Source of the DNA: Staphylothermus hellenicus DSM 12710 | Lineage (GTDB): Archaea; Thermoproteota; Thermoprotei_A; Sulfolobales; Desulfurococcaceae | DNA length: 32,000 bases | NCBI RefSeq assembly: GCF_000092465.1 | Contig: NC_014205.1 | Coordinates: 480,001-512,000, forward strand | Direction: 5' to 3' | Shown here: one piece after another, positions 4,107-29,449 of the stretch | Numbering within the stretch: the stretch's first letter is position 1 | How the letters are laid out: every line of letters begins with the position of its first letter | The notes under the pieces: generated by a model | Told to the model about the DNA's origin: nothing | Seen by the model: the letters and a program-made list of their open reading frames with translations, nothing else | The model's database searches: none | Program-made: the position numbers and the translations under genes

Positions 4107-4204
4107 TCAAACACCATATTTGAAAAATAAATGATCTTTGAAAGAATATGTTCCAAAAAAGAAATACACAAGTATGATTATGACCTAAAAAACCCTCTTA
4201 TTTT

Positions 4205-4588
4205 CTACCTATAGGTTGCCTCTCCACCCTGCTTCTTCAGAGTTTCCCTTAGCTCTTTGATTCTCTCCTCTACAGATCTGAGCTCCTCCTGCAACTCCTT
4301 GAGATCCTCTTCCAAAGCTTTCTTATAGTCTTCGAGCATCGCTAATTCTTCTTCAGGGCTCATAGGGAGTGGCGGTGGCGGAAAATATGGTGGAACCGGC
4401 TGATACACTGGTTGTGGTGGTTGAGGGGGCCGCCATTGTTGTTGAGTGGGTTGTTGTACTTGTTGGGTTTGTTGCTGTGGCTGTGTTTGTTGTTGGTATG
4501 GGTATTGGTATGGGTATGGTGGAGCATACCATGGTGGTGGCGGTGGAGGCCTATATCTTTTCATTATTCTATACCACCAATAGCTCAT
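4205..4588 (-). CDS. Pro/Gln/Tyr-rich low-complexity protein with C-terminal coiled coil, DUF5320-like
   Basis: 127 aa. Residues 1-75 are almost only P, Q, Y and W (RPPPPPPWYAPPYPYQYPYQQQTQPQQQTQQVQQPTQQQWRPPQPPQPVYQPVPPYFPPPP). Residues ~76-120 form a charged heptad-like helix (SPEEELAMLEDYKKALEEDLKELQEELRSVEERIKELRETLKK) that matches my memory of the conserved C-terminal helix of DUF5320 proteins. It is the last gene of a 4-gene collinear set, 15 nt after the upstream stop. Confidence 0.65.
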   Translation of the reverse strand: MSYWWYRIMKRYRPPPPPPWYAPPYPYQYPYQQQTQPQQQTQQVQQPTQQQWRPPQPPQPVYQPVPPYFPPPPLPMSPEEELAMLEDYKKALEEDLKELQEELRSVEERIKELRETLKKQGGEATYR

Positions 4589-4603
4589 TGGTAATACACC
4601 ATG

Positions 4604-4858
4604 TTAGCTCTCACTTGTCTTCGTATATGTTTTATATTGTTCAAGGCTCTTAATGAATGTCTCCATAGTTTTTCTCCAAGTATCAAGCATTGTTCTATAG
4701 ATCTCGATTGTCAACATATAGTAGTATGGATATATCATGTACTGGGTCATTACTGCTGTTAAATATTCTGGGTCATAGAATGGATAGCATCCGTAGGGAG
4801 GTATAGGGGCTGGTGGATAAGCATAGTACCATTTAGGTGGAGGCGGATACCAGCTCAT
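4604..4858 (-). CDS. Pro/Tyr/Trp-rich small protein with helical C-terminal half (unknown function)
   Basis: 84 aa: MSWYPPPPKWYYAYPPAPIPPYGCYPFYDPEY followed by a Tyr/Met-rich and then amphipathic segment (TMLDTWRKTMETFIKSLEQYK). The start is 4 nt after the stop of the upstream gene, with GGTGGTGA as a possible ribosome-binding site. The strand is inferred from the operon arrangement. Confidence 0.55.
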   Translation of the reverse strand: MSWYPPPPKWYYAYPPAPIPPYGCYPFYDPEYLTAVMTQYMIYPYYYMLTIEIYRTMLDTWRKTMETFIKSLEQYKTYTKTSES

Positions 4859-4862
4859 GGCT

Positions 4863-5153
4863 TCACCACCAGCCCCACCATGGTCTAAAATAATAATATG
4901 GTGCCGGATAATATGTTGGAGTATACGGTGTTATATATGGAGTAGTATAGTATGGGTAGTAGTACCAGGGATACCAGTAGTATCCGAGCCATGGATAAAA
5001 CCATCTATATGCTCCTCTCCCAAGGATCCATCCTGGCCTCTGCCATGGTGGTAAATAGCTGAAGGGGCCTTTTCCCGGCCATGGTCCGCGCCAGCCTCCT
5101 TTACCTTTACCCCAACCCCATCCTCCAAACCATGGGAACCAAGCCATATACAT
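4863..5153 (-). CDS. extreme Trp/Tyr/Pro/Gly-rich small basic protein (unknown function)
   Basis: 96 aa. Hand count: W16, Y19, F5, P16, G15 (71 of 96 residues), 8 K/R, no D or E. The N-terminus (GGWGWGKGKGGWRGPWPGKGP) resembles the Gly/Arg/Trp tail of the upstream NifX-like protein. GGAGGTG sits directly upstream (reverse complement of 5155..5161). Its spacing favours the second ATG (Met3, 5147) as the true start. Confidence 0.6.
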   Translation of the reverse strand: MYMAWFPWFGGWGWGKGKGGWRGPWPGKGPFSYLPPWQRPGWILGRGAYRWFYPWLGYYWYPWYYYPYYTTPYITPYTPTYYPAPYYYFRPWWGWW

Positions 5154-5225
5154 ACACCTCCTGGAATTGCTTCATTGATAGATATAGTCATAGAGGTTAA
5201 TAAAAAATTGTTCATATGCATAAAA

Positions 5226-5708
5226 TCACCTAATAAGACCCGCCCCTCTAAGAGCATCAACGACCCTAGAACCAGGAGGGACAGAGTAGACACTAATACC
5301 TTGTTGTTGAAGCATAGCTTGTGCATTAGGGCCAATAGTAGATGCTATAACAATTCTCGCACCAGCCCCCGCAACGAACTGGGCAAAGGCGAAACCAGCT
5401 CCTCCACCCCCCATAGCATAGGGGTTCTGCACCGGATATATATTGGCTATGTTACCATTTACTATATCGATGAATAATATAATTGGAGCACGCGCGAAGA
5501 CCGGTGAAACATGCGATTCTAAACCATTATTGTCATCAACACATACAGCTGCTCTAACACCATTAGGTGGGGGCGGCGGTAATTGTGGCTGAATAGGTTG
5601 ATAAGGCTGAAAACCACCGGGGCCTCCGCCTGTCCATCGAGGCCCGCCTCTGCCTCTACCCCATCCCTTACCTCTACCTTTACCCCATCCATAACCTTGC
5701 CAAGCCAT
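5226..5708 (-). CDS. NifX/NifB-C-type (dinitrogenase FeMo-cofactor biosynthesis, Nitro_FeMo-Co) domain protein with Gly/Trp/Arg- and Pro-rich N-terminal tail
   Basis: 160 aa. Residues ~50-160 (RAAVCVDDNNGLESHVSPVFARAPIILFIDIVNG ... GGGGAGFAFAQFVAGAGARIVIASTIGPNAQAMLQQQGISVY) follow the pattern of the Nitro_FeMo-Co domain: HFGxAxxFxIxD ... G.GAG...A..L...G...VI....G..A...L...GI.V. Residues 1-49 are MAWQGYGWGKGRGKGWGRGRGGPRWTGGGPGGFQPYQPIQPQLPPPPPN. Confidence 0.8.
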   Translation of the reverse strand: MAWQGYGWGKGRGKGWGRGRGGPRWTGGGPGGFQPYQPIQPQLPPPPPNGVRAAVCVDDNNGLESHVSPVFARAPIILFIDIVNGNIANIYPVQNPYAMGGGGAGFAFAQFVAGAGARIVIASTIGPNAQAMLQQQGISVYSVPPGSRVVDALRGAGLIR

Positions 5709-5852
5709 ATTAGATCGCCTAATATTTGTGAATTGTGAATAAATAATATGTATTAAGGTATATTAGCATTTTCACATAATGCTAAACAATAATAATCTAA
5801 TATAGTGTTTAAACAAACATATACAAGTAATGAATCGATCAAATAATAAGCA

Positions 5853-6597: not shown

Positions 6598-6969
6598 TTG
6601 GCAGAGGAGCTTCCAGATTATCTAAAAATGAAATTAATGAAAAAAATCATGAGCAAAGCTATGAAATCCAGTGAAGAAAAGAAAAAAGCCGGGAAAGAAA
6701 AAACTGATCCAGAAAAGATTGTTTGGGAAAAGCTTAGAGATGAACGGGCTAGAGAACTCATGTATAAAGCAAAAACCCTCTACCCCGATAGATACCCATT
6801 AGTAATCCAAGTCCTCCATACTTTGATCCACCAAGGAAAAATTAAAGAACTCGATGGCTACACAACCCTGCTCCTCCTCCACAGACTAGGTGTTCCAGTA
6901 AAACCCGATCTAAAAATAAGATTTGTAAAACATGGTAAAGAAGTTGATATGAAAGAATATCTCGAATAA
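6598..6969 (+). CDS. PDCD5/TFAR19-related double-stranded-DNA-binding protein
   Basis: 123 aa with a Lys/Glu-rich N-terminus. The segment LRDERARELMYKAKTLYPDRYPLVIQVLHTLIHQGKIKELDGYTTLLLLHRLG aligns by eye to the archaeal dsDNA_bind family (MTH1615-like: LTPEARSRL...RPD..EQIE.QLIQLAQ.G.....ITDEQL..LL). The TTG start is from the track; an ATG at 6628 is an alternative. Confidence 0.6.
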   Translation: MAEELPDYLKMKLMKKIMSKAMKSSEEKKKAGKEKTDPEKIVWEKLRDERARELMYKAKTLYPDRYPLVIQVLHTLIHQGKIKELDGYTTLLLLHRLGVPVKPDLKIRFVKHGKEVDMKEYLE

Positions 6970-7880: not shown

Positions 7881-8600
7881 TTAATATAAATGATTTATTA
7901 TTGGTTTTATTTCTTCGATGTATGGTTTTGCGTATTCTGTGTTTAGGAATTCTTTTATGGTATATTTTCCGATGAGTTTGCCTTTGTTTATATATGCTAT
8001 GTGGTCTCCTAGATCTATTGCTTCGATAATGTCGTGTGTTACGTGTATTGCTGTGAATTTTATTTTCTTTCTTAGTTCTTTGATGAAAGATCTTATTTTA
8101 ACCTTGTTTTCTGGATCAATGTTTGCAAGTGGTTCGTCTAGGAGAATTATTTTGGGTTCAACTATGAGGGCTCTTGCTAGTGCGACTCTTTGTTTTTCTC
8201 CGCCGCTGAGTGTGTCTGGTTTTCTCTCGAGTAAATGCTGGATGCCTAGAATCTTGCTGATCTCATAGATTCTTTTCTCGATAACATCCTTGTCGATACC
8301 TCTGATCATGAGTCCGAAGCCTATGTTTTCCTTAACAGTCATGTGTGGGAATAGGCCGTAGTCTTGAGGTATTAATACGAATCCTCTCTTCTCGGGTGGT
8401 AGCTCGGCTATGTTTTTATTATTTACAAGTATTTCTCCATGGAGGGGTTTATGGAATCCTGCGAGTGTGTGGAGAAATACTGTTTTTCCTACACCGCTTG
8501 GACCCATAACTATTAAGTATTCGTTATCGTTTATGCTGAGATATGGTATGCTTAGTTTAAAACTGCCTATTTCAACGTATAGGTCACGTATCTCTATCAT
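7881..8600 (-). CDS. wtpC: tungstate/molybdate ABC transporter, ATP-binding protein
   Basis: 239 aa with Walker A GPSGVGKT, signature LSGGEKQRVALARAL, Walker B ILLDEP and H-loop VTHD. Its ATG overlaps the upstream stop (ATGA at 8597..8600). Confidence 0.85.
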   Translation of the reverse strand: MIEIRDLYVEIGSFKLSIPYLSINDNEYLIVMGPSGVGKTVFLHTLAGFHKPLHGEILVNNKNIAELPPEKRGFVLIPQDYGLFPHMTVKENIGFGLMIRGIDKDVIEKRIYEISKILGIQHLLERKPDTLSGGEKQRVALARALIVEPKIILLDEPLANIDPENKVKIRSFIKELRKKIKFTAIHVTHDIIEAIDLGDHIAYINKGKLIGKYTIKEFLNTEYAKPYIEEIKPIINHLY

Positions 8601-9397
8601 TTCCTAAACAGCACCCTTATACCTATGAATGCTAGAAGCGATAATAATACGACTATTGATGATAATGCTGTTGTATATTTTAATCCATAAGTATTAAACC
8701 ATTCATAGATCAATACATTTATTGTTTTCGGATAATATGCTACAATAAGTATAGAGCCAACCTCGCTCAACGCCCGGGCCCATGAAAGCAGGAACCCAAC
8801 AATTATATTAGGTAGTAATAGAGGCAGGGTTATCTTTGCAAAAGTTACCCATCTATTTGCACCCAAACTTCTAGCAACAAGCTCTAAAGAAACACTGATC
8901 TTTTCATAACCAAGCTTTAAAGTATCAATCATTATTGGGAAAGAAACAAACAGCATAGCCGCGACAATTCCCCAGAAGCTATTCTCTACAGAAAACCCTA
9001 AAACACGGGGTAGATCATCAAATAATCCATTATGTCCATAAGCTAGTAGAATCATTATTCCAACAATCGTGTGTGGAATCATTAATGGAACATCTATAAG
9101 CCCCTCAACTAATTGTTTCCCCCTAAAACTATAGCGAGCCAATAAATAACCCGTAGGAATACCTATGACTAAAAGTATTAGTGTAGAAGTTATCGATGCT
9201 TGAATAGTCAATAACAATGCTGGATATGCTTGGCGAGAAAACACATTATCTTGTAGCCATACCTGGGAAAATGTTTCTGGATCAACACTTATGAATAAAG
9301 CAATTATTGGTGATAAAATAAGTAAAATACCTAAAGAAGACACAGCTATAAAGACTAATAAAAAACCCTCAATTCTCCTAAGACCCTGAACCAACAA
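8597..9397 (-). CDS. wtpB: tungstate/molybdate ABC transporter, permease
   Basis: 266 aa, a multi-helix BPD-type permease. It contains an EAA-like loop region (ELVARSLGANRWVTFAKITLPLL). It overlaps wtpA by 20 nt and wtpC by 4 nt. Confidence 0.8.
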   Translation of the reverse strand: MLVQGLRRIEGFLLVFIAVSSLGILLILSPIIALFISVDPETFSQVWLQDNVFSRQAYPALLLTIQASITSTLILLVIGIPTGYLLARYSFRGKQLVEGLIDVPLMIPHTIVGIMILLAYGHNGLFDDLPRVLGFSVENSFWGIVAAMLFVSFPIMIDTLKLGYEKISVSLELVARSLGANRWVTFAKITLPLLLPNIIVGFLLSWARALSEVGSILIVAYYPKTINVLIYEWFNTYGLKYTTALSSIVVLLSLLAFIGIRVLFRK

Positions 9398-10418
9398 TGC
9401 TACCTAACTCCTCCGGAACCTCTCCATAAACTATAAACTTCTCGAGATATGGCTGACCATTTTCCTCGAAGATTTCTCTACCAGTATAACCTAGTAGGAA
9501 TTCTAGAAACTTTAAAGCTTCACTCCTATTTGGCGCATTATCGAGAACTGTAACACCATATATTATTGGAGACATTGCCAAAGATTTTTCCTTATCAGTT
9601 CCAACAAGTATTTTTACAATAACTTTTCCATAGAAATCACCATATTCTGGATTACCTAGGTTTATTTGATCAGGTAGCCTAATATATTTTAAGTGATGCT
9701 GGACAGCAACACTTAGATATTCAAATGCGTAATCAATTGTTCCAGCTTCAACAAGCGATATTAAATCAACACTTTTAGATCTAATAATTAAATTACTATT
9801 CTCTCTAACCCTTAGATCAGCTGGGACAATTAAGTCTAAGGTATCATTAACTCTCTCCACTTCAATATTTGTTTTGTTAAGCAGTAAGTTCTCAAGAATG
9901 CTTGTATCATTATAATATATTGATGCCAAACCAATTATGCCTACCGAGCGATAACCGCATGGATCCTTGTTTGGATCAGAAAAGCCCCATTTCACATTGT
10001 TTCTCATCAAGATCCTGTACCATTCACTTGGATTATTTTCTAGTATTTCATGGTATTTTGATTTATCAGTATATATAAGCACTACTTGGTTTGTTGCAAA
10101 TCCTATATACCAACTAGTATGGTTTGGGACTAGGAATTTTGGAATAAGTCTATAATCAGCTACTGCGATAATATCGGCTTCTCTCCCAAGATCGGTTACT
10201 TTACGAATAGCTTCAACACTGCCACTGGCTTCAATATATATGTTTACCCCATACTTTTCCCTATACTTTGAAGCCGTCTCATCTAATGGTATTTTCAGTG
10301 AACCAGCAGTAAATATTATGATTTTAGAGGTATTGGCGGTGTGTGCATAGTAGTAGTATCCGGTGAGCGATGCTATGATTAGAACAATGATTATTATTGA
10401 TGTTTTTAGCTTATCCAT
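9378..10418 (-). CDS. wtpA: tungstate/molybdate-binding protein (extracytoplasmic solute-binding component)
   Basis: 346 aa with an N-terminal membrane anchor. Long stretches match my memory of Pyrococcus furiosus WtpA: FTAGSLKIPLDE, EASGSVEAIRKVTDLGREADIIAVADYRLIP, WGFSDPNKDPCGYRS, PIIYGVTVLDNAPNR. Confidence 0.85.
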   Translation of the reverse strand: MDKLKTSIIIIVLIIASLTGYYYYAHTANTSKIIIFTAGSLKIPLDETASKYREKYGVNIYIEASGSVEAIRKVTDLGREADIIAVADYRLIPKFLVPNHTSWYIGFATNQVVLIYTDKSKYHEILENNPSEWYRILMRNNVKWGFSDPNKDPCGYRSVGIIGLASIYYNDTSILENLLLNKTNIEVERVNDTLDLIVPADLRVRENSNLIIRSKSVDLISLVEAGTIDYAFEYLSVAVQHHLKYIRLPDQINLGNPEYGDFYGKVIVKILVGTDKEKSLAMSPIIYGVTVLDNAPNRSEALKFLEFLLGYTGREIFEENGQPYLEKFIVYGEVPEELGSIVGSGS

Positions 10419-10435
10419 GTAGATCGCCGACTTAT

Positions 10436-10459
10436 TAATTATCGGATATCCGATAATTA
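10436..10459. promoter_or_regulatory. perfect 24-nt palindrome in the wtpA promoter; candidate operator of the adjacent ModE-type regulator
   Basis: TAATTATCGGATATCCGATAATTA is self-complementary over all 24 positions (checked base by base). It lies 18-41 nt upstream of the wtpA ATG (10418). A TATA-like TTTTTATATTTC box (minus strand, 10474..10485) lies between the palindrome and the stop of the upstream regulator gene (10492). Confidence 0.5.
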
Positions 10460-10491
10460 GGCCTACTAATAATGAAATATAAAAATCTTAC

Positions 10492-11550
10492 TTAGAAAAA
10501 CAATACTTCGCCAATGTTCTCAGGTACTTTGTAGCCAGGCATGCTTTTTATTTTTTCAATAAATTCTTTCGACTTAATTGTTTCTGTTAGGTCTTTATAG
10601 AATTTGTTTTCTATCTTGTCCCTTCTAATAACTATGTCGAAGTTCTCCCATTTAATATGTTTGAAGTATAGGTTGTATGCTTTGGCAGCCCATTCAATAC
10701 CTATTCCTATATCTGCTTTACCTGTGGAAACTTGTTCAGCGACTTCTAAGTGAGTATATGCTATGTTCTTGTATCCTTTAATCCTCGACCTAATAATGTC
10801 TATTTTGGTATTCCTTTTCTCAGCTTCACGTTTTAGGATATATTCTAGTAATTGCCTACTACCAGATCCCTCGTTTCTATTTATAAGCCTATATGTTCCG
10901 TTGACGAGTTTTTCGATGATCTCTTCATAAGTAGTTTTAGATCGTGTTATAAAACCTATACTTCTAAGCCAGCCTCTTATCAGTGCTAAACTTGTTGAAC
11001 CACCATATTTCTCTATAAACGATACATTGTATTCGCCAGTATCGGGATCTAGTAGGTGTGTGCCGGAGAAGTCTGCTTCACCAAGTATTATGGATGATAA
11101 ACCCTTTAATGAGCCGATCCAGTGTACTTCGACAACGTATCCTTTATCTCTCAATAAACCCGTTAAATAATTTATTAGGATATCGTGGCTTCCAGCATAC
11201 ACGTATATTTTCTGTAAAGCCCCGGGTTTACGGGGTATTTCTACATGGAACTCCCTATGAAAATATTTTTTATAAGCAGAAATGTATCTCTCCAACAAAT
11301 CCAGGCCAACACTTGTTAGAGTTGCACCGCCTCTAGCACCACGATGCTTTTCAACAACCCGCCTACCCAGGATATTCTCTATTCTCGTCAACATATCCCA
11401 AGCACTACTATATGATAACCCTAATACGCGGCTAGCAGACAATATCGAGCCTAAACGATTAATTAAATATAATAGCTTAGCAGATAACTCATCCAACACC
11501 ACGTATCCATCCAGAACAAGTTTAAGCTCCAAATATTCTCTCAAATCCAT
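10492..11550 (-). CDS. molybdate/tungstate-responsive transcriptional regulator candidate: ModE-type N-terminal HTH fused to a periplasmic-binding-protein-like domain
   Basis: 352 aa. The N-terminus (LINRLGSILSASRVLGLSYSSAWDMLTRIENILGRRVVEKHRGARGGATLTSVGLDLL) closely follows the ModE N-terminal HTH pattern (SxxxAAxxLGxSYxxAWxxI..............GGxxGGGAxLTxxG). The remaining ~250 aa look like a PBP-type ligand-binding fold. It lies directly upstream of wtpABC. Confidence 0.75.
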   Translation of the reverse strand: MDLREYLELKLVLDGYVVLDELSAKLLYLINRLGSILSASRVLGLSYSSAWDMLTRIENILGRRVVEKHRGARGGATLTSVGLDLLERYISAYKKYFHREFHVEIPRKPGALQKIYVYAGSHDILINYLTGLLRDKGYVVEVHWIGSLKGLSSIILGEADFSGTHLLDPDTGEYNVSFIEKYGGSTSLALIRGWLRSIGFITRSKTTYEEIIEKLVNGTYRLINRNEGSGSRQLLEYILKREAEKRNTKIDIIRSRIKGYKNIAYTHLEVAEQVSTGKADIGIGIEWAAKAYNLYFKHIKWENFDIVIRRDKIENKFYKDLTETIKSKEFIEKIKSMPGYKVPENIGEVLFF

Positions 11551-16127: not shown

Positions 16128-16799
16128 ATGGTTAAAATCACTGGTTTCTGGTTTATTGATAGGTTTTTTGATGGGATTCCATGGAATAGTGTTTACGAGT
16201 TTTATAGTAGTGATAATAGGTTGTTAGAGCTTTTATTTCATTATGTTATAAGTATTTCTAGTGTTTATGGGAGAGTCTATGTTGTTCTAGTACGTGAATT
16301 CGGTGGTTTAGACCCATATTTTCTTCTCAGACTTACCCGTATGCATAGGGGTGATCCTGATAATGTTTTTGTTTCTCGTTGTTTCCGCGTAGGAGATGTT
16401 GAAACTGTTCTTGAGGATCTTTTAGAGAATAATTTCTCGAAGAAATCATCTGTTCTAATCTATACTCCCTACTCCTTTGTTAGGAACGGTTTAGCGGGTT
16501 ATCACGATATGGGCAGGATTACTGGTTTAATTCATAGGTTGAAGAATCTTGGTTATCGTATTATATTGTTTAATGAGGTTAGTAGGGATGGTTATTATAG
16601 ACCTATGGGTGGTTCTTTTCATCATCATACAGCAGACATTATTCTCCGATTAGATGTTAAGGATGGGAAATGGGGTTATCTCATTGTTGTTAAGCATCCT
16701 CGTTTATCGGAGGGGCTGCGTATAAGTATTCCAATCAATAAGATCAGGGGTGGGAATATATGGGTAGAACAACGATCTCTTATAGAATGGCTCTCCTAA
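16128..16799 (+). CDS. RecA/RadB-like fold protein lacking Walker A and Walker B (predicted inactive ATPase)
   Basis: 223 aa. It is collinear by eye with RadB/KaiC-type RecA-fold proteins. DRFFDGIPWNSVYEFYSSDNRLLELLFHYV corresponds to LDELLGGGI..G.ITEIYGPPGSGKTQLALQL. SSVLIYTPYSFV corresponds to the hhhhDS Walker B strand. RITGLIHRLKNLGYRIILFNEVS and ADIILRLDV...VVKHPRLSEG match the later strands. The GxxxxGKT/S motif and the Walker B Asp are both replaced. Confidence 0.6.
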   Translation: MVKITGFWFIDRFFDGIPWNSVYEFYSSDNRLLELLFHYVISISSVYGRVYVVLVREFGGLDPYFLLRLTRMHRGDPDNVFVSRCFRVGDVETVLEDLLENNFSKKSSVLIYTPYSFVRNGLAGYHDMGRITGLIHRLKNLGYRIILFNEVSRDGYYRPMGGSFHHHTADIILRLDVKDGKWGYLIVVKHPRLSEGLRISIPINKIRGGNIWVEQRSLIEWLS

Positions 16800-16984
16800 G
16801 GGAGCTGGAAAGATTCCGTAGAATAATAGCTAGGCTTCCAAGAGATGAGAAAGCTAGGTGGGAAGAAATACTTGAGGGTATTGAGGATACTATGAGTATC
16901 TACAGCGATGTCCCAATAACTGATCCATTGGAGATCATATATTTCCATATACTACGTAGGCTTTTAAGAGATGATGTTTCTTGA
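16760..16984 (+). CDS. small alpha-helical protein (unknown), translationally coupled between the RecA-like and PolB genes
   Basis: 74 aa in the track. An ATG at 16787 (MALLRELERFRRIIARLPRDEKARWEEILEG...) gives 65 aa and a 13-nt overlap with the upstream stop. Its TGA stop overlaps the TTG start of the polymerase gene (16981..16984). Confidence 0.5.
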   Translation: MGRTTISYRMALLRELERFRRIIARLPRDEKARWEEILEGIEDTMSIYSDVPITDPLEIIYFHILRRLLRDDVS

Positions 16985-18927
16985 ACAATAATATTCTATA
17001 TCTTTTCGACGCCGTCCCCTCCGGTAAGTATACCTTGTTTAAACTATTGGACCGGGATGGAAGAGTATATGTAGTTCCTATAAGTCTTCTATATCGTGGA
17101 TACCTTATGCCACGTATTGATCCAGATGTTTTATTGGAGAATGTTGAGTTAATAAATGGTGTTGAAAAAGTATGGGTTGAGAACTGGTATAAACCACCAT
17201 ACTTTTCTTCTGAGACAGAAGTAGTTGTTTATGAAACACGTGATCCCCGCATAATAAGTACTGTGAATAATTGGGCTATACGTAAAGCTATCGGTGTTCC
17301 AGTTAATACTTTTCCTGAACCATTAATTGAAGCTTTATGGAGAAACAAGATCCCTGTACTAACCCCTTTGAAGAAATATGGGGATAGAATTGTTGCTTTG
17401 GAGAATCCTTTTGATCCAGAATATTCTGAGCCTCCGATCAAGTATTTAATACTACGCTTATTTAGAGGTGGGTATAGATTATATTCTGAAGCAATAGATC
17501 CGGAGAAAGTTGTTGTAGAGGATAATGAGGGCATAGTTTATGAGGGTGGCTTGGATGGAGCTGTTGAAACTATTCGTGAACATAAACCATTAATACTCTA
17601 TACCAGTATTGTAGAGAAAATATATGTTGAGCAAAGATATTCTTGGATTAAGAAATACTATGATGTATGGATAGATGATGCTGAAACACTTGTTGATCAT
17701 ACAGGTATAGTGTATTGGAGCAGGCTATCATATACTCCTCCTAGAATGCTTAACTATGCAACCATAGGCAGAATACTAACTACTATAGAAGCATTAGAAG
17801 CTAGGAAACATAAATACCTAATAATAAATGGTTTTGGACGCAGAGAGTCTTGGAGAAGTCTTCGAAGCCTATTAGAAACTGATCGTGGAGGACTAGTTTA
17901 CTCGCCTAAACCCGGCCTGTACTGGGATATTTGCCAAATAGACTATAACAGTCTTTATCCAAGCATCATTGCTAAATACAATATTAGTGGTGAAACAATT
18001 GATAATCCATATTGTAGGAACAAATATGTAGTGAAGAATTCACCGCATATAATATGCATGGATCGCAGAGGACTTGTATCAATTGTTCTAGATAAACTAG
18101 TAAGGCTACGTGAGAAAACAAAAATGCTTAGGGCACAAACAAATAATGAAGTATATAGTCTTAGAAGCAAAGCTCTTAAATGGATGCTTGTCTCAGGCTT
18201 TGGCTATCTAGGATTCAAGAATAGTTTATTCGGCTCAATAATGGCTCATGAAACAGTTACATGGTATGCTCGCAGAATATTGAGAGAAGCACAATGGTTG
18301 CTGGAGAAGAGAGGCTATAAAGTAGTACATGTAATAATAGATAGCTTATTTGTTCAAGGAGGAGATTGTGAGAAAGCATTGAGAATAGTTGAAGAAACAG
18401 GTATGCCTGCAAAAATAGAAGCTGAATATACATGGCTATATATTCCGGAAACAAAGAATACAGGGCTTGGAGCAGCTAATAAATACTATGGGAGACTAGC
18501 TAGTGGAGAAATGAAGATTAAGGGAGTAATGTGTGTTAGGAAAAACACTCCAATATTCATTAGAGAAACACAGTTAGAAGCAATAAATAAGCTTGGAGAA
18601 GCCGGAAAACCAGAAGAGCTCAAGGAGAAATTAAGAGAAGCACATACAGTTTTCCAATTAGCCGAACAAAAACTTATCAATAGAGAAGTAGAGTCTTGGA
18701 AGCTAGGCATAATAGTTAATGCTAGGAAAAAACCCAAACATAAAACACCATGGTTAAAAGCATCATCAATGATCAGAAAATATACTGGACCCATAGTCTA
18801 CATAATATCCCCTAGCGGAGAACCCGAACCCCTTATAGATACTGACCAAAAATACAGTGCAGAATACTATGTAAAACTACTACATAGCGCATGGGAAGAA
18901 ATACCAAGCATAGATATAATTCAATAA
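16981..18927 (+). CDS. family-B DNA polymerase, PolB2/Dpo2-like: exonuclease motifs absent, motif C altered
   Basis: 648 aa. Motif A is intact: GGLVYSPKPGLYWDICQIDYNSLYPSII (D321..S328, nt 17941..17964). Motif B is divergent: KWMLVSGFGYLG versus KxxxNSxYG. Motif C reads VVHVIIDSLFV where YGDTDS is expected, so only one Asp is left. The KKRY-like NKYYG and the thumb block IKGVMCVRKNTP are present. No DxE or NxxxFD exonuclease motifs occur in the N-terminal 300 aa. Confidence 0.8.
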   Translation: MNNNILYLFDAVPSGKYTLFKLLDRDGRVYVVPISLLYRGYLMPRIDPDVLLENVELINGVEKVWVENWYKPPYFSSETEVVVYETRDPRIISTVNNWAIRKAIGVPVNTFPEPLIEALWRNKIPVLTPLKKYGDRIVALENPFDPEYSEPPIKYLILRLFRGGYRLYSEAIDPEKVVVEDNEGIVYEGGLDGAVETIREHKPLILYTSIVEKIYVEQRYSWIKKYYDVWIDDAETLVDHTGIVYWSRLSYTPPRMLNYATIGRILTTIEALEARKHKYLIINGFGRRESWRSLRSLLETDRGGLVYSPKPGLYWDICQIDYNSLYPSIIAKYNISGETIDNPYCRNKYVVKNSPHIICMDRRGLVSIVLDKLVRLREKTKMLRAQTNNEVYSLRSKALKWMLVSGFGYLGFKNSLFGSIMAHETVTWYARRILREAQWLLEKRGYKVVHVIIDSLFVQGGDCEKALRIVEETGMPAKIEAEYTWLYIPETKNTGLGAANKYYGRLASGEMKIKGVMCVRKNTPIFIRETQLEAINKLGEAGKPEELKEKLREAHTVFQLAEQKLINREVESWKLGIIVNARKKPKHKTPWLKASSMIRKYTGPIVYIISPSGEPEPLIDTDQKYSAEYYVKLLHSAWEEIPSIDIIQ

Positions 18928-19626
18928 TTTCACCTAAGTAAATCATCAATGAATCCAATAGATCATAACTCTATACGGGATTACAGCAACTTTTCACGAC
19001 AAATTTCTCCACTAGAGATACCACTACTAGAACAACAATTTTTGTTCTCAAAGGACTTAGCATAAATGATAACATAAAACTCTTTGATCTTCCTCTCAAA
19101 CCATTCATGAAACATCTAAGAAGTAAAGAACTGAAATGTATATCTAAGAAGCACTCACTAGCTATAATCCAGAGCTTATATCGGATCTACTGATCCTTAC
19201 AATAGAATTGCTGGTTTAACTATAACATCTCATTTTTCACCAAACATATTCATATACATAATCACACTAATCTATCCTATGTCCCCCATTATATTATTGA
19301 TTATACTAGTAATAAAATCTAAAAGTCTCTATGGACATCATCAAACCCACTATTAGAAGCAGTAGATTAAAGCTATGAATTGAACAAATAATTGAAGCAT
19401 AAATTTTTCTTAAAGAAGCTAAAGACCAATGAATTAAGATTTCTTTTAAAGGGTCCATCGCTAAATCACTTCCAGCCATAAAGGATAAGTCATAACATAA
19501 AAAGCTCAAAACCATTATCACCCCTATTAATATTCTCCAAACACTAATAACCCGACCTCTCAACCGAAAAAATAAACAATGAATGTAAAGAAGTTATTAG
19601 GAAAAAACTATAAGGAGTAGATAGGA

Positions 19627-20205
19627 ATGGAAAGACCTATAAAGCTGGTGAGTATATCCCTATCTCTTTTAATAATTATAATCTTGTTAATAATTATAAT
19701 CTTGTCCATCTCTCTAACTCCAGCATCAGCCAGCACTAATATAGAGCCCAATCGCTGGCTAGAGCCAGAATTACTATCAGAGGATCATCGTTCCCATGGA
19801 TACGTGGGTGCATCAACTACATTGAATTTCTCGATCTCCTATGGAGGTGCCACATTTAGAGTAGCAGTTTTTGTTAGTGGGGCAGATGCATATGATGTTG
19901 GTATACTGGCATTAGGAGGACACTACGATGTCCTTAGAGGCTATTATGTAGATTTTGGAGTAAAAGTTGCAACCTATCCCAAGGACTGGACAGGACCCGG
20001 CTGGTTCGAGTCATACCACTTTGATGCAATAAAGGCGACGCATAGTCCTTTATACTTTTACATGAGTTTACCATATGCCAAAGTATGGGTGGAGGGAGAT
20101 ATAAGGTTCAAGGTTACCCACACAACATGGTGGGGAGCATCCTCAAATATATATTGGGATAATTGGACTAATCTCTATGCAGAAGCAATAGTTCGTGTAG
20201 AGTAA
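19627..20205 (+). CDS. secreted or N-terminally anchored beta-rich protein (unknown function)
   Basis: 192 aa. The N-terminal hydrophobic segment LVSISLSLLIIIILLIIIILSISL is followed by TPASAS. The remainder is rich in aromatic/Gly beta-strand-like sequence. An AGGAG box lies upstream (19613..19617). It is the first gene of a 5-gene operon. Confidence 0.6.
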   Translation: MERPIKLVSISLSLLIIIILLIIIILSISLTPASASTNIEPNRWLEPELLSEDHRSHGYVGASTTLNFSISYGGATFRVAVFVSGADAYDVGILALGGHYDVLRGYYVDFGVKVATYPKDWTGPGWFESYHFDAIKATHSPLYFYMSLPYAKVWVEGDIRFKVTHTTWWGASSNIYWDNWTNLYAEAIVRVE

Positions 20206-20260
20206 TGCTCCTCTATACTTATTTTTTAACATTATTTTTATAAAATAATATTAACATATA

Positions 20261-21163
20261 TTGGGAGGTTATGATTACATGGTGGGCTCTCTAAAGCATT
20301 TATTATTCACGCTTGCTTGGATAGGTATTATCATGGCAGTCTTATTGTCTATTGTAGCTGTTGGTTCGGCCACGCCACAACCTCCTTCAGTTCTCACTTA
20401 TCATGGCGACGGCTTTGAATTTGCCTTTAGAAGGGGGGATGTCTTTGTGGGTAATGATACATATCTTTCTGAAGATGTCACTATTACTATTAGTTTTGAA
20501 CCCATTAATTCCACTGCTTCATGGATATATGTGGATATAAGAGCTCCAGCGGTTTATTACTGGCCTCACAGAAACTTTGTATTTCGTGGCATATGGGATG
20601 TTGAGTGCAATGAATCCGCCGACTGGCGTAGTGTGAGAACTATTATGCATAACTACCACTTAAGACTCAAATACCTTGTTAACACAACAAATAACTATGC
20701 ATGGCTTAATGGTGAGTTCATAGGGTTCTTCCCATTCTACATATTCCCAACACTAGGCTATGACAATGTAACTAAGTACACATATGTATACATGGGGAAG
20801 GAGCTGCATGTGGCGATGCTGGAGGGAAAGCCTGGGCCAAGCCGCCTCCATGTGAAGGGGGCTAGTGGTAGAGAATATGAAATAGTAGCGCTTACCCTAT
20901 ATAATAAGTATATTAATATTGGATTCGTATATCACTGGCCAATAAGTGTCACCGGCTTCATACCTATTGGGAACAACACCTACTTACACATCGACTCTGC
21001 AACCATTGATGAAGACTGGATTCCCTATCTAAAAGCTATCGACGACTACCCTGAATGGGTTACAACTATTGATTGGAGCAGACTTATATTATTTATAGCC
21101 ATCATAGGATCCATAATAGCATTGGTCATTATGTTCATCAGGAGGAGGAGGAGGCATAAGTAA
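20261..21163 (+). CDS. surface protein with N-terminal signal/anchor and C-terminal transmembrane anchor (unknown function)
   Basis: 300 aa. The N-terminal helix is LLFTLAWIGIIMAVLLSIVAVGSA. The C-terminal helix LILFIAIIGSIIALVIMFI is followed by RRRRRHK. There are at least six N-x-S/T sequons (NDT, NST, NES, NTT, NVT, NNT). GGGAGGT at 20263..20269 suggests the real start is ATG 20279 rather than TTG 20261. Confidence 0.6.
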   Translation: MGGYDYMVGSLKHLLFTLAWIGIIMAVLLSIVAVGSATPQPPSVLTYHGDGFEFAFRRGDVFVGNDTYLSEDVTITISFEPINSTASWIYVDIRAPAVYYWPHRNFVFRGIWDVECNESADWRSVRTIMHNYHLRLKYLVNTTNNYAWLNGEFIGFFPFYIFPTLGYDNVTKYTYVYMGKELHVAMLEGKPGPSRLHVKGASGREYEIVALTLYNKYINIGFVYHWPISVTGFIPIGNNTYLHIDSATIDEDWIPYLKAIDDYPEWVTTIDWSRLILFIAIIGSIIALVIMFIRRRRRHK

Positions 21164-21931
21164 TTGTTGAAGCTTCCTCTGAGGGAGTCTTTCTCAATCA
21201 CAACTATTGTAATAGCGGCTATCCTAGCATCTTCTCCATTACTAATAGCACTTACAGGCTTCATACCTTACAACTATAGTGTATATGGTGAAATTATTAA
21301 ATCACCTAATGCCACCGTTTCAGGGATGAGTTTTTATAGGGGTTTATGCCGAGCAGCCGGGTCTGTTCATGTTAATAGGACTATGTTACTGCTAACTTAT
21401 CTTAGCTTCTTTGATCTTGTGTCAGCTACATACTTTCTGTTATCAGGAGTGATTGCCGCCTATTTGATCGCTAGGCCTCTTGAATACAAGTATTTCTTCA
21501 TAGAAGCAACATATAGTGGGGGAAGGCTACCTATATTTCTATTAAGACTTGGCTCCGCCTACATGCTGGGAGTGTTTTCCTCAATACTTGGTGCAATGAA
21601 CCTAGCTGGTGTGGTATATGTTTTAAAGCTATATAGTGGAATAAGTGAGGCACTACTATCCTCTATTGAGTTGTTGCTTCTTGAAACACTCATAGCTGTA
21701 TCGGTGTCGTCGCTGATATCGTTGTTTACGAGGAGTTTCCCAACAAGCACACTTGGTGTTCTAGGCATCCTTGTACTAATACTTCTGCTTGGTATGAAAT
21801 ACAGTTTCCTCAACAGCATAGTGCTTGTAGATAGAATTCTTGTAGGGGATGGAAGTATTGAAGCATATCTCGCAGCCTTGCTCGTATCAATTGTAGGTTC
21901 TGTGTGGAGGGCTGATATGATTGAGTATTAG
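21164..21931 (+). CDS. polytopic membrane protein, ABC-2-type permease candidate
   Basis: 255 aa with about six hydrophobic helices. It starts directly after the upstream stop. A TTG start is required to keep the first helix, because the first internal Met is residue 55. It lies two genes upstream of an ABC ATPase. Confidence 0.55.
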   Translation: MLKLPLRESFSITTIVIAAILASSPLLIALTGFIPYNYSVYGEIIKSPNATVSGMSFYRGLCRAAGSVHVNRTMLLLTYLSFFDLVSATYFLLSGVIAAYLIARPLEYKYFFIEATYSGGRLPIFLLRLGSAYMLGVFSSILGAMNLAGVVYVLKLYSGISEALLSSIELLLLETLIAVSVSSLISLFTRSFPTSTLGVLGILVLILLLGMKYSFLNSIVLVDRILVGDGSIEAYLAALLVSIVGSVWRADMIEY

Positions 21932-22304
21932 AGCTAGGATAATTATTGCTGTATCAATACTGGTCATTATAGTCTTTGCTGAATTCCTAGTATTTATGCA
22001 GGGTTTCCTCCCACAGTCACAAGTGTATATAGAGCTTAAAGCACCGCTCTATCCAGGTAGAGCTGTCTACTCTACAAGTATCAACGTATTCCTTGGCAGG
22101 GGAGTATATGAAGTTGTCATCAACCCCTCTACAAAGCTCTCAATATGTATTGTATCAGATAATACTACGCGTGTATTGAATGTATCTAAACCGGTTAAAA
22201 TCCGCATATTTAGCGAGACTGGGTTATCGATAACAGTACTAGCTATTATAGAACAGTATAAAACAAACCTAGGCACGATCAGGGTGGTTAGGCGTTGGAT
22301 ATAG
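21921..22304 (+). CDS. single-pass membrane protein with beta-rich ectodomain (unknown function)
   Basis: 127 aa. The N-terminal helix is IIIAVSILVIIVFAEFLVF. It overlaps the upstream gene by 11 nt and the downstream gene by 10 nt. Confidence 0.5.
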   Translation: MSIRARIIIAVSILVIIVFAEFLVFMQGFLPQSQVYIELKAPLYPGRAVYSTSINVFLGRGVYEVVINPSTKLSICIVSDNTTRVLNVSKPVKIRIFSETGLSITVLAIIEQYKTNLGTIRVVRRWI

Positions 22305-23206: not shown

Positions 23207-24781
23207 GTGCCTCATTATATCCTCGTTGTTGATCAGGGAACTACTGGTACTAGAGCGGTTCTCTACGATGATAGGGGCGGGGTTATTAATTATAGTTATC
23301 TAGAGCATTGCCAGATCTATCCTCGTCCAGGCTGGGTAGAGCATGATCCATTAGAGATTTGGAGGAATACAGTTTATGTATTGAGAGATGCTGTGAAGCA
23401 TTCAGGAATTGATCCTAGTGATATAGTTGGTGTTGGTGTAACTAATCAGCGGGAAACAACTATTGTATGGGATAAAGCTACAGGTAAGCCCATATATAAT
23501 GCTATTGTGTGGCAAGATACTCGAACCACTAATTACTGTAAGGATCTCATTGAAAAGGGTTTATACAAGCTTGTCCACGAGAAAACAGGGTTAACTATTT
23601 CAACATATTTCTCGGCTACAAAAATAAAATGGATCCTAGATAATTTACCGGGTGCTCGAGAGAGGGCGGAGCGCGGAGAACTATTATTCGGAACTATTGA
23701 TACATGGATTATATGGAACATGACCAGGGGGACAAGGGATCATTTAACCCCTGATCGTGGAGGAGCACATGTTATAGATTATTCTAATGCTTCTAGGACA
23801 ATGTTGTTCGACATAGTTAATCATAGATGGTCAAGTGAATTATTAGAGGAGATGAGGATACCATACGGGATTCTTCCAGTAGTTGTTCCGAGTAGTTCTA
23901 GGAAACCATATGGTTATATGAATAAGGATATACTGGGTGAAGAAATACCTATACATGGGGATCTAGGTGATCAACAAGCCGCACTTGTTGGGCAAACATG
24001 TTTTAGAAGGGGTGAATTAAAATCAACTTATGGTACTGGAACATTTATGTTGTTAAATACTGGAGATAAACCTGTTTATTCATCTAGGGGATTACTTACT
24101 ACGATAGGCTATGTATTTGAAGGATATGATCCAGTATATGCTCTTGAAGGTTCAGTAGCAATTAGTGGTGCGGCTATTCAATGGCTTAGAGATAATCTCA
24201 GAATAATTAGAGATCCTTCCGAAACAGAAAAACTAGCTATGAAGACCGGGAAAATAGGTTCTGGAGGAGTATATTTTGTTCCTGCATTTAGCGGATTGTA
24301 TGCTCCATACTGGGACATGACTGCTAGAGGATTGATAATTGGTCTTACAAGATATACTAGGATAGAACATATTGTTCATGCAGTGCTCGAGGCAACTGCT
24401 TACCAGGTAAGAGACGTATATGAAGCCATGATCAATGATACTGGAATAGTTATAGATAAGTTAAAAGTAGATGGTGGTGCTACTAAAAACAATTATCTTA
24501 TGCAGTTACAAGCCAACATACTCGGAATACCTGTTCTCCGACCTAAAAATATTGAAACAACAAGTTTAGGTGCAGCATTCGCTGCTGGATTGGGAGCTGG
24601 ATTATGGAGGAATATTGAAGAACTACGACAATTATGGGTTTTGGATAAAGAGTTTAAACCTATATGGAATAAGGAGAAAAGAGAGAAGCTATATAGTGGA
24701 TGGAGATCAGCTGTTAAGAGAGCTATGAAATGGTTAGATGAAGTCGGAGAGCTACCCGGTAGTAGTGCTTATAAGGAATAA
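23207..24781 (+). CDS. glpK: glycerol kinase
   Basis: 524 aa. It has the N-terminal YILVVDQGTTGTRAVLYD, plus NQRETTIVWD, GDQQAALVGQ and DGGATKNNYLMQLQANILG, the hallmark FGGY-family/GlpK blocks. It has a GTG start. Confidence 0.92.
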   Translation: MPHYILVVDQGTTGTRAVLYDDRGGVINYSYLEHCQIYPRPGWVEHDPLEIWRNTVYVLRDAVKHSGIDPSDIVGVGVTNQRETTIVWDKATGKPIYNAIVWQDTRTTNYCKDLIEKGLYKLVHEKTGLTISTYFSATKIKWILDNLPGARERAERGELLFGTIDTWIIWNMTRGTRDHLTPDRGGAHVIDYSNASRTMLFDIVNHRWSSELLEEMRIPYGILPVVVPSSSRKPYGYMNKDILGEEIPIHGDLGDQQAALVGQTCFRRGELKSTYGTGTFMLLNTGDKPVYSSRGLLTTIGYVFEGYDPVYALEGSVAISGAAIQWLRDNLRIIRDPSETEKLAMKTGKIGSGGVYFVPAFSGLYAPYWDMTARGLIIGLTRYTRIEHIVHAVLEATAYQVRDVYEAMINDTGIVIDKLKVDGGATKNNYLMQLQANILGIPVLRPKNIETTSLGAAFAAGLGAGLWRNIEELRQLWVLDKEFKPIWNKEKREKLYSGWRSAVKRAMKWLDEVGELPGSSAYKE

Positions 24782-24811
24782 GAACCGGCTATATAAAAAT
24801 AATAATTTTTA

Positions 24812-27018: not shown

Positions 27019-27034
27019 CTAAAATCTTGTCTGG

Positions 27035-27054
27035 AACAATAATTATTTATTGTT
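27035..27054. promoter_or_regulatory. inverted repeat in the divergent hydrolase/GDPD promoter; second copy of the shared glycerol-promoter motif
   Basis: AACAATAA-TTAT-TTATTGTT has 8-nt arms that are perfectly complementary. It lies 17-36 nt upstream of the hydrolase ATG and 49-68 nt upstream of the GDPD TTG. Confidence 0.3.
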
Positions 27055-27102
27055 TCGCCAAATATATAAATAGAAAGTATTTATTGATCGAGGTGTTCAG
27101 AC

Positions 27103-29443: not shown

Positions 29444-29449
29444 AATGGA

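Follow-up and report, generated by a model that had tools for sequence, protein, structure and literature searches.

The locus described here raises the question of what is encoded by four small, collinear open reading frames (ORFs) of the hyperthermophilic archaeon Staphylothermus hellenicus DSM 12710. The window, meaning the whole stretch of DNA that was analysed, comprises 32,000 nucleotides (nt) of contig NC_014205.1 (positions 480,001 to 512,000), and its minus strand carries (i) ORF1 (5226-5708; 160 amino acids, aa), (ii) ORF2 (4863-5153; 96 aa from the first ATG, or 94 aa from the second, 4863..5147), (iii) ORF3 (4604-4858; 84 aa), and (iv) ORF4 (4205-4588; 127 aa), spaced by 72, 4, and 15 nt. 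This arrangement, proposed in an earlier note on the same DNA, agrees with a re-listing of the ORFs, and the compositions given there (ORF2 with 74% W/Y/F/P/G, ORF3 rich in P/Y/W, ORF4 rich in P/Q/Y) match upon recomputation. The locus is a conserved archaeal module in which a NifX-type domain, low-complexity tails, and a coiled coil are spread over four polypeptides. It is tentatively proposed, as a possibility that stops short of being probable, that the operon builds a heteromeric matrix akin to the particles of the iron-sulfur (Fe-S) storage protein IssA of Pyrococcus furiosus, which would sequester, store, or hand on Fe-S material.

All four ORFs are real genes under purifying selection, since substitutions concentrate at third codon positions. 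Compared with two related loci, the differences at first, second, and third positions amount to 19/8/36 in ORF1, 14/13/39 in ORF2, 19/14/36 in ORF3, and 26/27/65 in ORF4, a third-position excess in all four minus-strand frames that supports the coding strand assigned earlier. The same genes stand in the same order on the related contigs L003 (~90% identical) and L004 (~75% identical), the ORF3 and ORF4 homologues of the latter being present but uncalled, and the order ORF2, ORF3, ORF4 is kept in many archaeal genomes, in agreement with the expectation of syntenic homologues in relatives. In the databases, ORF1 corresponds to ADI31660/WP_013142858 ('NifB/NifX family molybdenum-iron cluster-binding protein') and ORF3 to ADI31658 ('hypothetical protein'); ORF4 is not on record in public protein sets under either plausible start. 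Logan, an independent automated caller, reports ORF2 at 94 aa and ORF3 at 84 aa but misses ORF4, over which it places an 88-aa call on the wrong strand (P0135; window 4387-4653, plus strand). Gene callers systematically overlook or mis-strand such low-complexity genes.

ORF2 is a protein with 41% aromatic residues, a net charge of +8, and no acidic residues. Its residues 21-46 (94-aa numbering; 5010..5087, minus strand) form an invariant head motif, GPWPGKGPFSYLPPWQRPGWILGRGA, which in an alignment of 31 sequences from several archaeal phyla has the consensus GPWPG(R/K)GPFSYLPPWQRPGW(L/I)(F/Y)GRGAC, with 15 invariant positions (G21, P22, W23, P24, G25, G27, L32, P33, P34, W35, R37, P38, G39, W40, and G43). 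The remainder of the protein (residues 47-94; 4866..5009, minus strand) is an aromatic tail with 56% W/Y/F, 19% Pro, and no coiled coil, of which the homologues keep the composition but not the sequence. Pfam (E <= 10) and NCBIfam return nothing for ORF2 or ORF3; nevertheless, 135 homologues of ORF2 were retrieved, nearly all from archaeal metagenome-assembled genomes (MAGs) and many carrying the DUF5320 profile PF17253, and ORF2 aligns with PF17253-bearing proteins at E values of 1e-11 to 1e-6, which points to homology with the head of bona fide DUF5320 proteins. The head family shows four types of tail, including (i) a Pro/Thr linker followed by a coiled coil, as in canonical DUF5320, (ii) a Tyr/Pro/Trp-rich segment without coiled coil, as in ORF2, (iii) a very short tail, as in Thermococcus, and (iv) a Cys-containing module. 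In species-representative genomes, 256 loci match the head, all of them archaeal, spanning Desulfurococcales, Thermofilales, Thermoproteales, Bathyarchaeia, Nitrososphaeria, Hadesarchaea, Methanomethylicota/Culexarchaeia, Thermococci, Korarchaeia, Asgard, Thermoplasmata, and Methanocellales. AlphaFold2 (AF2) run with the family alignment gives ORF2 a mean predicted local distance difference test score (pLDDT) of 47.6 and no confident fold, in keeping with a segment that would acquire its order on a ligand; relatives with a solved structure were searched for and none was found for the ORF2 family. The earlier note had taken ORF2 for part of an expanded disordered region of DUF5320, a description that gives way to that of a conserved DUF5320-type head, invariant at the same 15 positions across archaeal phyla.

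ORF4 supplies the complementary element. It begins with a W/Y/R head (MSYWWYRIMKRY), continues with poly-Pro, Gln-rich, and Pro/Tyr stretches, and ends in a charged coiled coil of DUF5320 type, SPEEELAMLEDYKKALEEDLKELQEELRSVEERIKELRETLKK (residues 77-121; 4226..4360, minus strand), with a clean Leu-rich a/d heptad register. The same architecture recurs in its family, namely M(S)YWWYRxxRRY, poly-Pro, Gln-rich, Pro/Tyr, and then TPEEELxMLEDYKKALEEDLxxLQEELKxVEERIKEL. A word-indexed search with ORF4 returned a single relative, P0003; searching the raw ORFs of the fetched loci with a hidden Markov model (HMM) returned ~55 ORF4-like genes. The claim that profile searches would connect the two terminal genes of the operon to known families holds for ORF1, which passes the Nitro_FeMo-Co cutoff with 58.8 bits, but not for ORF4 in Pfam, where DUF5320 scores 16.2 bits against a cutoff of 27, amid generic coiled-coil matches. 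The link comes from profile-profile comparison alone: hhalign aligns residues 74-119 of the ORF4 family with the tails of full-length archaeal DUF5320 proteins at 98.5% probability (E 1.9e-15), identifying the ORF4 C-terminus as homologous to the DUF5320 coiled coil, as had been suspected.

The relationship between ORF2 and ORF4 was addressed in related loci, 80 of the 256 having been examined; many of these are MAG contigs, some closely related to one another, and their gene calls are crude ones made for this analysis. In full-length proteins PF17253 covers both head and tail (in P0018, residues 7-98 match profile positions 19-99), so that head and coiled coil belong to one polypeptide, whereas in S. 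hellenicus they do not, and ORF3 sits between ORF2 and ORF4. Among loci with at least 1.2 kb of sequence on both sides, a separate coiled-coil gene lies within 1.2 kb of 34 of the 38 head-only, aromatic-tail genes and of none of the four full-length genes (Fisher p = 6e-4), the strict regular expression used for the head leaving few full-length loci in the count. Because of the head homology, the tail homology, and this complementarity, ORF2 and ORF4 are recognised, at the level of sequence, as the two halves of a split DUF5320 protein. The split may have arisen by fission or by duplication with complementary loss, the W/Y/R start of ORF4 resembling that of a second, 'type B' head found in some loci. 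Compared to canonical DUF5320, an uncharacterised family of anaerobic bacteria and archaea, the S. hellenicus version thus differs in that (i) it occupies two genes, neither of which reaches the Pfam cutoff (ORF2 having no match at all), (ii) another gene is inserted between them, and (iii) each half has gained a long aromatic, Pro-rich, or Gln-rich extension. In the literature searched, DUF5320 receives incidental mentions only, in two papers.

ORF3 comprises a disordered Pro/Tyr/Trp-rich N-terminus (residues 1-29) and a single long α-helix (residues 30-83), the latter 54 residues being confidently predicted by AF2 (mean pLDDT 84). A word-indexed search with ORF3 retrieved ORF3 alone; its apparent orphan status was overturned by an HMM search of raw ORFs in related loci and by exhaustive HMMER. 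With an HMM built from the three Staphylothermus-like copies, an ORF3-like gene is recovered immediately after the head gene in ~30 loci of Desulfurococcales, Thermofilales, Thermoproteales, Culexarchaeia, and others, and 20 of the 38 aromatic-tail loci contain one. The conserved core reads DPxYL..(Q)W..PYYYxLxxExYRxxxxxWRKxxE. The family is largely unannotated, since exhaustive HMMER yields 11 matches among 1.84 billion (1.84e9) called proteins, and no relative with a solved structure was found. A diverged DUF5320 coiled coil was considered and rejected (hhalign probability 7%), as was a membrane protein (maximum 19-residue Kyte-Doolittle window, 0.77). ORF3 accordingly does not belong to the expanded DUF5320 region in which it had been included, and by all these comparisons represents a previously unrecognised family.

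ORF1 contains a Nitro_FeMo-Co domain (PF02579/IPR003731; residues 64-154; 5247..5519, minus strand), as predicted earlier, with 58.8 bits against a gathering cutoff of 26.3, whereas the NCBIfam MrpORP model fails on it (20.8 bits against a 450-bit cutoff). The GW/RG/P-rich segment that the earlier note described as a tail lies instead at the N-terminus: residues 1-50 (5559..5708, minus strand) comprise a cationic, RGG/GW-rich segment and then a poly-Pro linker, with 32% G, 20% P, 12% R+K, 14% aromatic, and no acidic residues. The whole protein has an isoelectric point (pI) of 10.35 and one Cys. This type of N-extension occurs in 19 of the 26 extended NifX ORFs of the related loci, as listed from domain-only coordinates, and in a neighbour-joining tree the domains that carry it form an exclusive clade (18/18). 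Other NifX proteins bear short C-terminal GMGRGGGRGGRW tails. The domain is shared with NifX, NafY, and the C-terminus of NifB, which bind anionic Fe-S-based clusters non-covalently; NifX and NafY lack the low-complexity N-extension of ORF1, NCBI names ORF1 at family level only, and no nitrogenase (nif) gene occurs among the ORFs of the window. A role beyond nitrogenase is suggested by Nanoarchaeum equitans, with a minimal genome and no nitrogenase, where NEQ386, of the NifX family, ranks in the top 30 proteins by abundance (PMC3149612), which points to a core non-nitrogenase role of the domain in archaea.

Natural fusions join the two kinds of protein. Seven of them run from a NifX domain through GMGRG-rich and Pro-rich stretches to a DUF5320 coiled coil and pass both cutoffs (PF02579, 80-92 bits; PF17253, 37-54 bits), while fusions in reverse order, found in L049 and L053, comprise a W/Y/R head, a coiled coil, RGG/GW, poly-Pro, and NifX; in L049 the coiled coil is of ORF4 type and itself exceeds the PF17253 cutoff (32.7 bits). 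As read from these predicted proteins, NifX and low-complexity modules are physically coupled. Gene neighbourhoods agree with the fusions. Of 60 loci, 27 have a NifX-like gene no more than 1 kb from the head gene, 30 of the 44 NifX genes being so placed, and a Pfam census of 150 non-module neighbours is led by ParA/CbiA (MinD/Mrp-type NTPases; 23), DUF134 (a helix-turn-helix, HTH, family; 19), and Fer4 (4Fe-4S ferredoxin; ~18), followed by ArsA, metallo-beta-lactamase, radical S-adenosylmethionine, and ThiW families. In L014, L023, and L065, DUF134 immediately precedes the three-gene module. The association of DUF5320 with Nitro_FeMo-Co and MinD/Mrp-type genes, which had been put forward earlier, is borne out in the related loci, and the neighbourhood of the S. 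hellenicus type resembles that of DUF5320 proteins at large in this respect (NifX, MinD/Mrp-Fer4, and DUF134).

The closest characterised analogue of ORF1 in its modular make-up is IssA (PF2025) of P. furiosus, in which a Pro-rich region connects an IPR003731 domain to an unstructured cationic, aromatic, and Gly-containing tail (Vaccaro et al. 2017, PMC5524996). The 70-aa tail contains 11 P, 7 cationic, 14 aromatic, and 15 G residues and has a pI of 10.7; the protein keeps Fe and S as anionic thioferrate in particles of 20-300 nm, is induced by S0 and Fe, and its tail has been proposed to wrap the polyanion, with aromatic contacts providing stabilisation (PMC5524996). ORF1 likewise consists of an IPR003731 domain, a Pro-rich linker, and an unstructured cationic Gly/Trp/Arg segment of near-matching composition, the same modules in permuted order, with the segment N-terminal in ORF1 and C-terminal in IssA. 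Published criteria for the IssA clade are a pI >= 9, fewer than 5 Cys, and a Gly content >= 20% over the 40 C-terminal residues (Vaccaro 2017, Supplementary Fig. 7), and the domain, pI, and Cys content of ORF1 fall within them; a high pI and a single Cys are common to ORF1 and IssA. Both hosts are S0-reducing hyperthermophilic archaea, and the electrostatic wrapping and aromatic contacts proposed for IssA fit the chemistry of all four proteins encoded here. On the other hand, IssA is homomeric, whereas the ORF1 operon co-encodes three extra small proteins. In P. furiosus lacking IssA, thioferrate-like particles still form and are more crystalline, and the deletion strain grows more poorly at high Fe plus sulfide (PMC8219758), so that IssA modulates or sequesters the mineral rather than nucleating it, and other factors are possible. 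The precedent bears on two claims of the earlier note: low-complexity-driven assembly is not an unexplored idea for a hyperthermophile, IssA already forming thioferrate-protein nanoparticles, and of the 'undescribed system' what stands is an undescribed multi-protein variant, the kind of system being known from a protein with the modules of ORF1.

Further known systems share parts of the architecture. The ORP (orange protein) cluster of Desulfovibrio vulgaris (PMC6345978, PMC8359166, PMC3897727) is, like the related archaeal loci, anaerobe-specific and built from NifX-like, MinD-4Fe-4S, and Mrp carriers; the Desulfovibrio complex comprises MinD-Fer4 (Orp3/4), NifX-like (Orp8), and Mrp-NifX (Orp9) proteins, the NifX-like domain of MrpORP binding an Fe-S cluster and the ORP NifX-like protein a non-covalent Mo-Cu-S cluster (PMC6345978). 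Genes of Orp3/4 type (MinD-like with two [4Fe-4S] motifs) and Orp9 type are present in many related loci and absent from the window, the regulation of ORP by sigma-54 and OrpR is bacterial, and DUF5320-type proteins are not described as ORP components (PMC6345978, PMC8359166). Among low-complexity assemblers in general, likeness is confined to composition, without sequence homology. The proteins in question are the FUS-type RGG/Tyr condensate proteins, amelogenin, a Pro/Gln/Tyr-rich biomineral matrix protein, and the sulfur-globule (Sgp) proteins SgpA-C, and the shared traits are the pairing of Arg/Gly with Tyr/Trp, the Pro/Gln-rich N-terminus of ORF4, and small size. Amelogenin and Sgp proteins coat or organise an inorganic phase, and a role of this kind for ORF1-4 would be an analogy.

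S. hellenicus is an obligately S0-dependent anaerobe, and the low-complexity parts of the operon are all net cationic. The mechanism favoured tentatively, drawn from the IssA analogy and the gene fusions, would run as follows. The NifX domain would bind iron and sulfur in anionic form, as thioferrate-like (FeS2-)n or as an Fe-S cluster or its precursor, and the acid-free Gly/Arg/Trp segments of ORF1 and ORF2 would bind the polyanion electrostatically. The invariant head motif may fold on a specific partner, the NifX domain or the inorganic chain, while the aromatic Pro-rich segments of ORF2, ORF3, and ORF4 would cohere via π-π and cation-π contacts and the ORF3 helix and ORF4 coiled coil would oligomerise, cross-linking the network. 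The outcome would be a multi-protein matrix or particle in the sulfide-rich cytoplasm of a hyperthermophile, which would elaborate the homomeric IssA nanoparticle into a heteromeric one. Elsewhere among the genomes the module might couple to MinD/Mrp-type Fe-S ATPases, Mrp/NBP35 proteins being Fe-S carriers (PMC6345978), and to the DUF134 HTH protein. A broader form of the idea, and a rather unlikely one, is that the trio plus an RGG-tailed NifX constitutes a widespread and almost wholly unannotated archaeal scaffold, a heteromeric disordered aromatic-rich matrix organising an iron-sulfur mineral body or condensate; that its setting is the cytoplasm of anaerobic, mostly thermophilic archaea; and that DUF5320 proteins are free-standing IssA-type tails with an oligomerising coiled coil.

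Several observations weigh against an IssA-like matrix. Only 5 of the 14 three-gene loci have a NifX gene within 5 kb, and MinD is often missing too; the conserved core in this lineage is the three small genes, not NifX, and the small proteins may therefore not need NifX. The ORFs of the window include none for MinD/Mrp, Suf, or Feo; the metal-related genes closest to the operon encode a molybdenum/tungsten (Mo/W)-type ATP-binding cassette (ABC) transporter and a PBP_like/HTH regulator. Nothing else co-purifies with the homomeric particles of IssA (PMC5524996), so that a multi-protein version is an extrapolation. ORF1 has only 5 Gly in its 40 C-terminal residues and 15 in its 40 N-terminal ones, below the Gly content of the published IssA clade, because its tail is N-terminal; a screen based on the C-terminus would miss such proteins. 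Its domain belongs to a clade of its own, apart from the C-tailed types of the examined loci (IssA itself being C-tailed), with only 31-33% identity to C-tailed and DUF5320-fused NifX domains, and the resemblance to IssA may be convergent. ORF2 of S. hellenicus reads GRGAY and has lost the near-invariant Cys of the family motif (GRGAC). Proteins that bind nucleic acids have RGG/GW motifs just as typically (PMC7565180), and the literature searched yielded nothing on the expression, localisation, or metal binding of ORF1-4.

Other explanations were weighed as well. The most serious is that no inorganic polymer is involved and the split DUF5320 acts as a protein-only, ORP-like adaptor, tethering or regulating NifX-like carriers and MinD/Mrp Fe-S ATPases, with the head motif as docking peptide and the coiled coil as dimeriser; it is judged unlikely. 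The ORP complex, implicated in cell division and Fe-S maturation, offers the template through its MinD-Fer4, NifX-like, and Mrp-NifX components (PMC6345978); the neighbour census dominated by ParA/CbiA/Mrp-Fer4 and DUF134, the NifX-DUF5320 fusions, and the 15 invariant motif positions, suggestive of a specific protein partner, fit it. MinD/Mrp genes are, however, missing from the window and from most three-gene loci, DUF5320-type proteins are not reported as ORP members (PMC6345978, PMC8359166), and docking would not need the extreme, conserved aromatic/Pro/Gln content, which stays unexplained. A nucleic-acid or regulatory module, in which the RGG/GW boxes of ORF1 and ORF2 bind RNA or G-rich DNA and the small proteins together with the DUF134 HTH protein relay NifX-sensed metal-cluster status to gene expression or RNA metabolism, is distinctly unlikely. 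It draws on DUF134, a sigma-70 region 4-like HTH family found directly upstream in three loci and at 19 of the 150 census positions, and on a search for RG-rich quadruplex-binding-like motifs that flagged one DUF134 and one DUF5320 protein in M. mazei (PMC7565180). This support is at motif level; the window contains no DUF134 gene, the most conserved element is Trp/Pro/Gly-rich and not a classical RGG repeat, and RNA-binding proteins do not typically have Tyr/Pro tails or a fused NifX domain that binds clusters.

The invariance of the head also bears on the ligand-independent condensate suggested in the earlier note, in which Arg/Gly and Tyr/Trp/Pro/Gln stickers would phase-separate when hot, by a transition of lower critical solution temperature (LCST) type, with NifX as a client. 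The compositions do resemble the pairing of RGG with Tyr-rich prion-like segments in the FUS family, ORF2 has no predicted fold, and the ORF4 coiled coil and long ORF3 helix could give multivalency; but a 26-residue head invariant across phyla argues for a specific ligand over generic stickiness, and net cationic low-complexity parts without acidic residues lead one to expect a polyanionic partner, which makes this account improbable. Very improbable is a coat or matrix for another inorganic inclusion or cofactor, such as elemental sulfur or polysulfide, after the small, Gly/Tyr-rich sulfur-globule proteins of purple sulfur bacteria, or thiotungstate or thiomolybdate, after the Mo-Cu-S cluster of the orange protein. 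The S0 dependence of the host, the Mo/W-type ABC transporter and PBP_like/HTH regulator 2-6 kb away, and an ORF2/ORF4 pair following a gene for tungsten-type aldehyde ferredoxin oxidoreductase (AFOR) in locus L002 are compatible with it, as is the non-covalent Mo-Cu-S cluster of the ORP NifX-like protein (PMC6345978). Yet AFOR and Mo/W families are not among the 25 commonest neighbour families, and a general Mo/W (tungsten) link was rejected on this ground; no signal peptides occur here, whereas Sgp proteins are exported, and direct evidence was not found. Finally, the small ORFs might be chance frames in compositionally odd DNA, as the disagreement of gene callers (the wrong-strand Logan call over ORF4) and the solitary word-indexed match of ORF3 could be taken to mean. 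This artefact is refuted by the third-position excess in all four frames and by order and sequence conserved in dozens of loci from several archaeal orders; Shine-Dalgarno-like motifs and a likely terminator also speak against it. Tandem repeats are merely short and low-copy, so that repeat expansion of the DNA was rejected as an explanation, and an RNA gene was rejected likewise, no Rfam family having matched.

The significance of an IssA-like matrix would lie in the poorly understood storage, detoxification, and traffic of iron and sulfide in anaerobes, for which IssA is the only characterised Fe-S storage protein, yet is dispensable for thioferrate-like particles (PMC8219758). This locus connects DUF5320 with the non-nitrogenase NifX-like proteins, two functionally unassigned groups that abound in anaerobes. 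The seven fusions and the shared tail chemistry suggest that DUF5320-type proteins may be detachable IssA-like tails, a concrete and testable hypothesis for the family. The set of partners is conserved across archaea but mostly unannotated and is a multi-protein variant of IssA-like NifX/DUF5320 kinds; the families of ORF3 and ORF4, which gene callers miss or mis-strand although they are conserved in Thermoproteota and further lineages, matter for archaeal annotation. Were the proteins to co-assemble at 85 °C, they would provide a natural model for low-complexity-driven assembly at extreme temperature. Were the widespread scaffold real, DUF5320 would gain a function, the thioferrate-like particles of P. 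furiosus without IssA could be explained, and archaea would for the first time be seen to scaffold an inorganic phase with several low-complexity components.

The DNA around the ORFs contains candidate expression signals, all on the minus strand. A Shine-Dalgarno-like GGAGGTG (5155..5161) lies 7 nt 5' of the second ORF2 ATG, its GAGGTG being kept in related loci, and since homologues begin alike, the second ATG at 5147 (94 aa, MAWFPWF...) is the most likely start of ORF2. Similar motifs precede ORF3 (GGTGGTGA, 4863-4870, 4 nt ahead) and ORF4 (GGTG, 4597-4600). The gap between ORF1 and ORF2 contains a TATA-like element, TTTTTTATTAA (also TTTATTAA; 5196..5206), ~50 nt upstream of the ORF2 start, which may be an internal promoter for ORF2-4; its TTTATWA is common to four loci, which suggests independent transcription of these three genes. 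Upstream of ORF1, the block TGTGAAAATGCTAA(T)ATAC (5758..5776) is invariant in four Staphylothermus-like loci while its flanks diverge; in the window it serves as right arm to an inverted repeat, TAGCATT-N8-AATGCTA, the left arm of which is unconserved, and may be a promoter or a regulator site. A T6 run (4187..4192), 12 nt past the ORF4 stop, is likely an archaeal terminator.

Some observations concern the DUF5320-head proteins themselves. The change in the GRGAC motif of ORF2 falls at window positions 5004-5006 (residue 48 in 94-aa numbering) and is a single-base TGT to TAT difference; the Cys is kept in the L003 copy (91% identical) and in the L004, L006, and L007 copies (75-82% identical), so that the change may be a real loss or a sequencing error. 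A second type of DUF5320 protein, with a head of MGYRWRRMYYLTGLPGWMRFGYSPGW..., occurs in L015 (5207-5728), L024 (5265-5783), L026 (5217-5693), L052 (5322-5852), L054 (5218-5694), and L072 (3353-3886); it displays tandem coiled coils, one of 'TKEQExxMLExQ' type and one of the 'SPEEELxxLEDY' type of ORF4, and adjoins a head-A gene and NifX-DUF5320 fusions. A Cys module of approximate form H.DC.(H/Y)(Y/F).(N)G.C......(14-16 residues)..ACP.F.P stands C-terminal, after a Pro/Tyr linker, in a Thermococcus NifX-like protein (L073, 233-793) and C-terminal in some head-family proteins (P0073, P0108), an accessory module common to NifX and DUF5320-head proteins; L073 also has two head-type genes in tandem (778-999 and 975-1238). 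In the MAG locus L002 (567-2429), the ORF2/ORF4 pair comes directly after the tungsten-type AFOR gene and a ThiS-like/methyltransferase-like gene.

In the window, the operon is neighboured by MarC, a 123-aa protein, the Mo/W-type ABC transporter, and a PBP_like/HTH_1 regulator. The 123-aa ORF (6598-6969, plus strand), Lys/Glu-rich and without Pfam match, lies between MarC and the transporter and is a called gene in L001 and L003; the transporter (SBP_bac_11, BPD_transp_1, and ABC_tran) and the regulator occupy 7881-11550 (minus strand). Farther away, a 648-aa ORF (16981-18927, plus strand) with a weak, partial family-B DNA polymerase (PolB) match (80 bits) is surrounded by ORFs without Pfam match (16128-16799, 19627-20205, 20261-21163, 21164-21931, and 21921-22304), with a comparatively low GC content (0.35-0.36); the whole region (16128-22304, plus strand) could be an integrated mobile element or contain a degenerate PolB paralogue. 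At 27820-30958 (minus strand), three adjacent genes for a DUF1667 protein that weakly matches Molybdop_Fe4S4, a pyridine nucleotide-disulphide oxidoreductase, and a DAO/BFD-like [2Fe-2S] oxidoreductase adjoin glycerol kinase (FGGY) and GDPD genes (23207-27798) and likely constitute an ordinary-looking cluster of anaerobic glycerol-3-phosphate dehydrogenase type.

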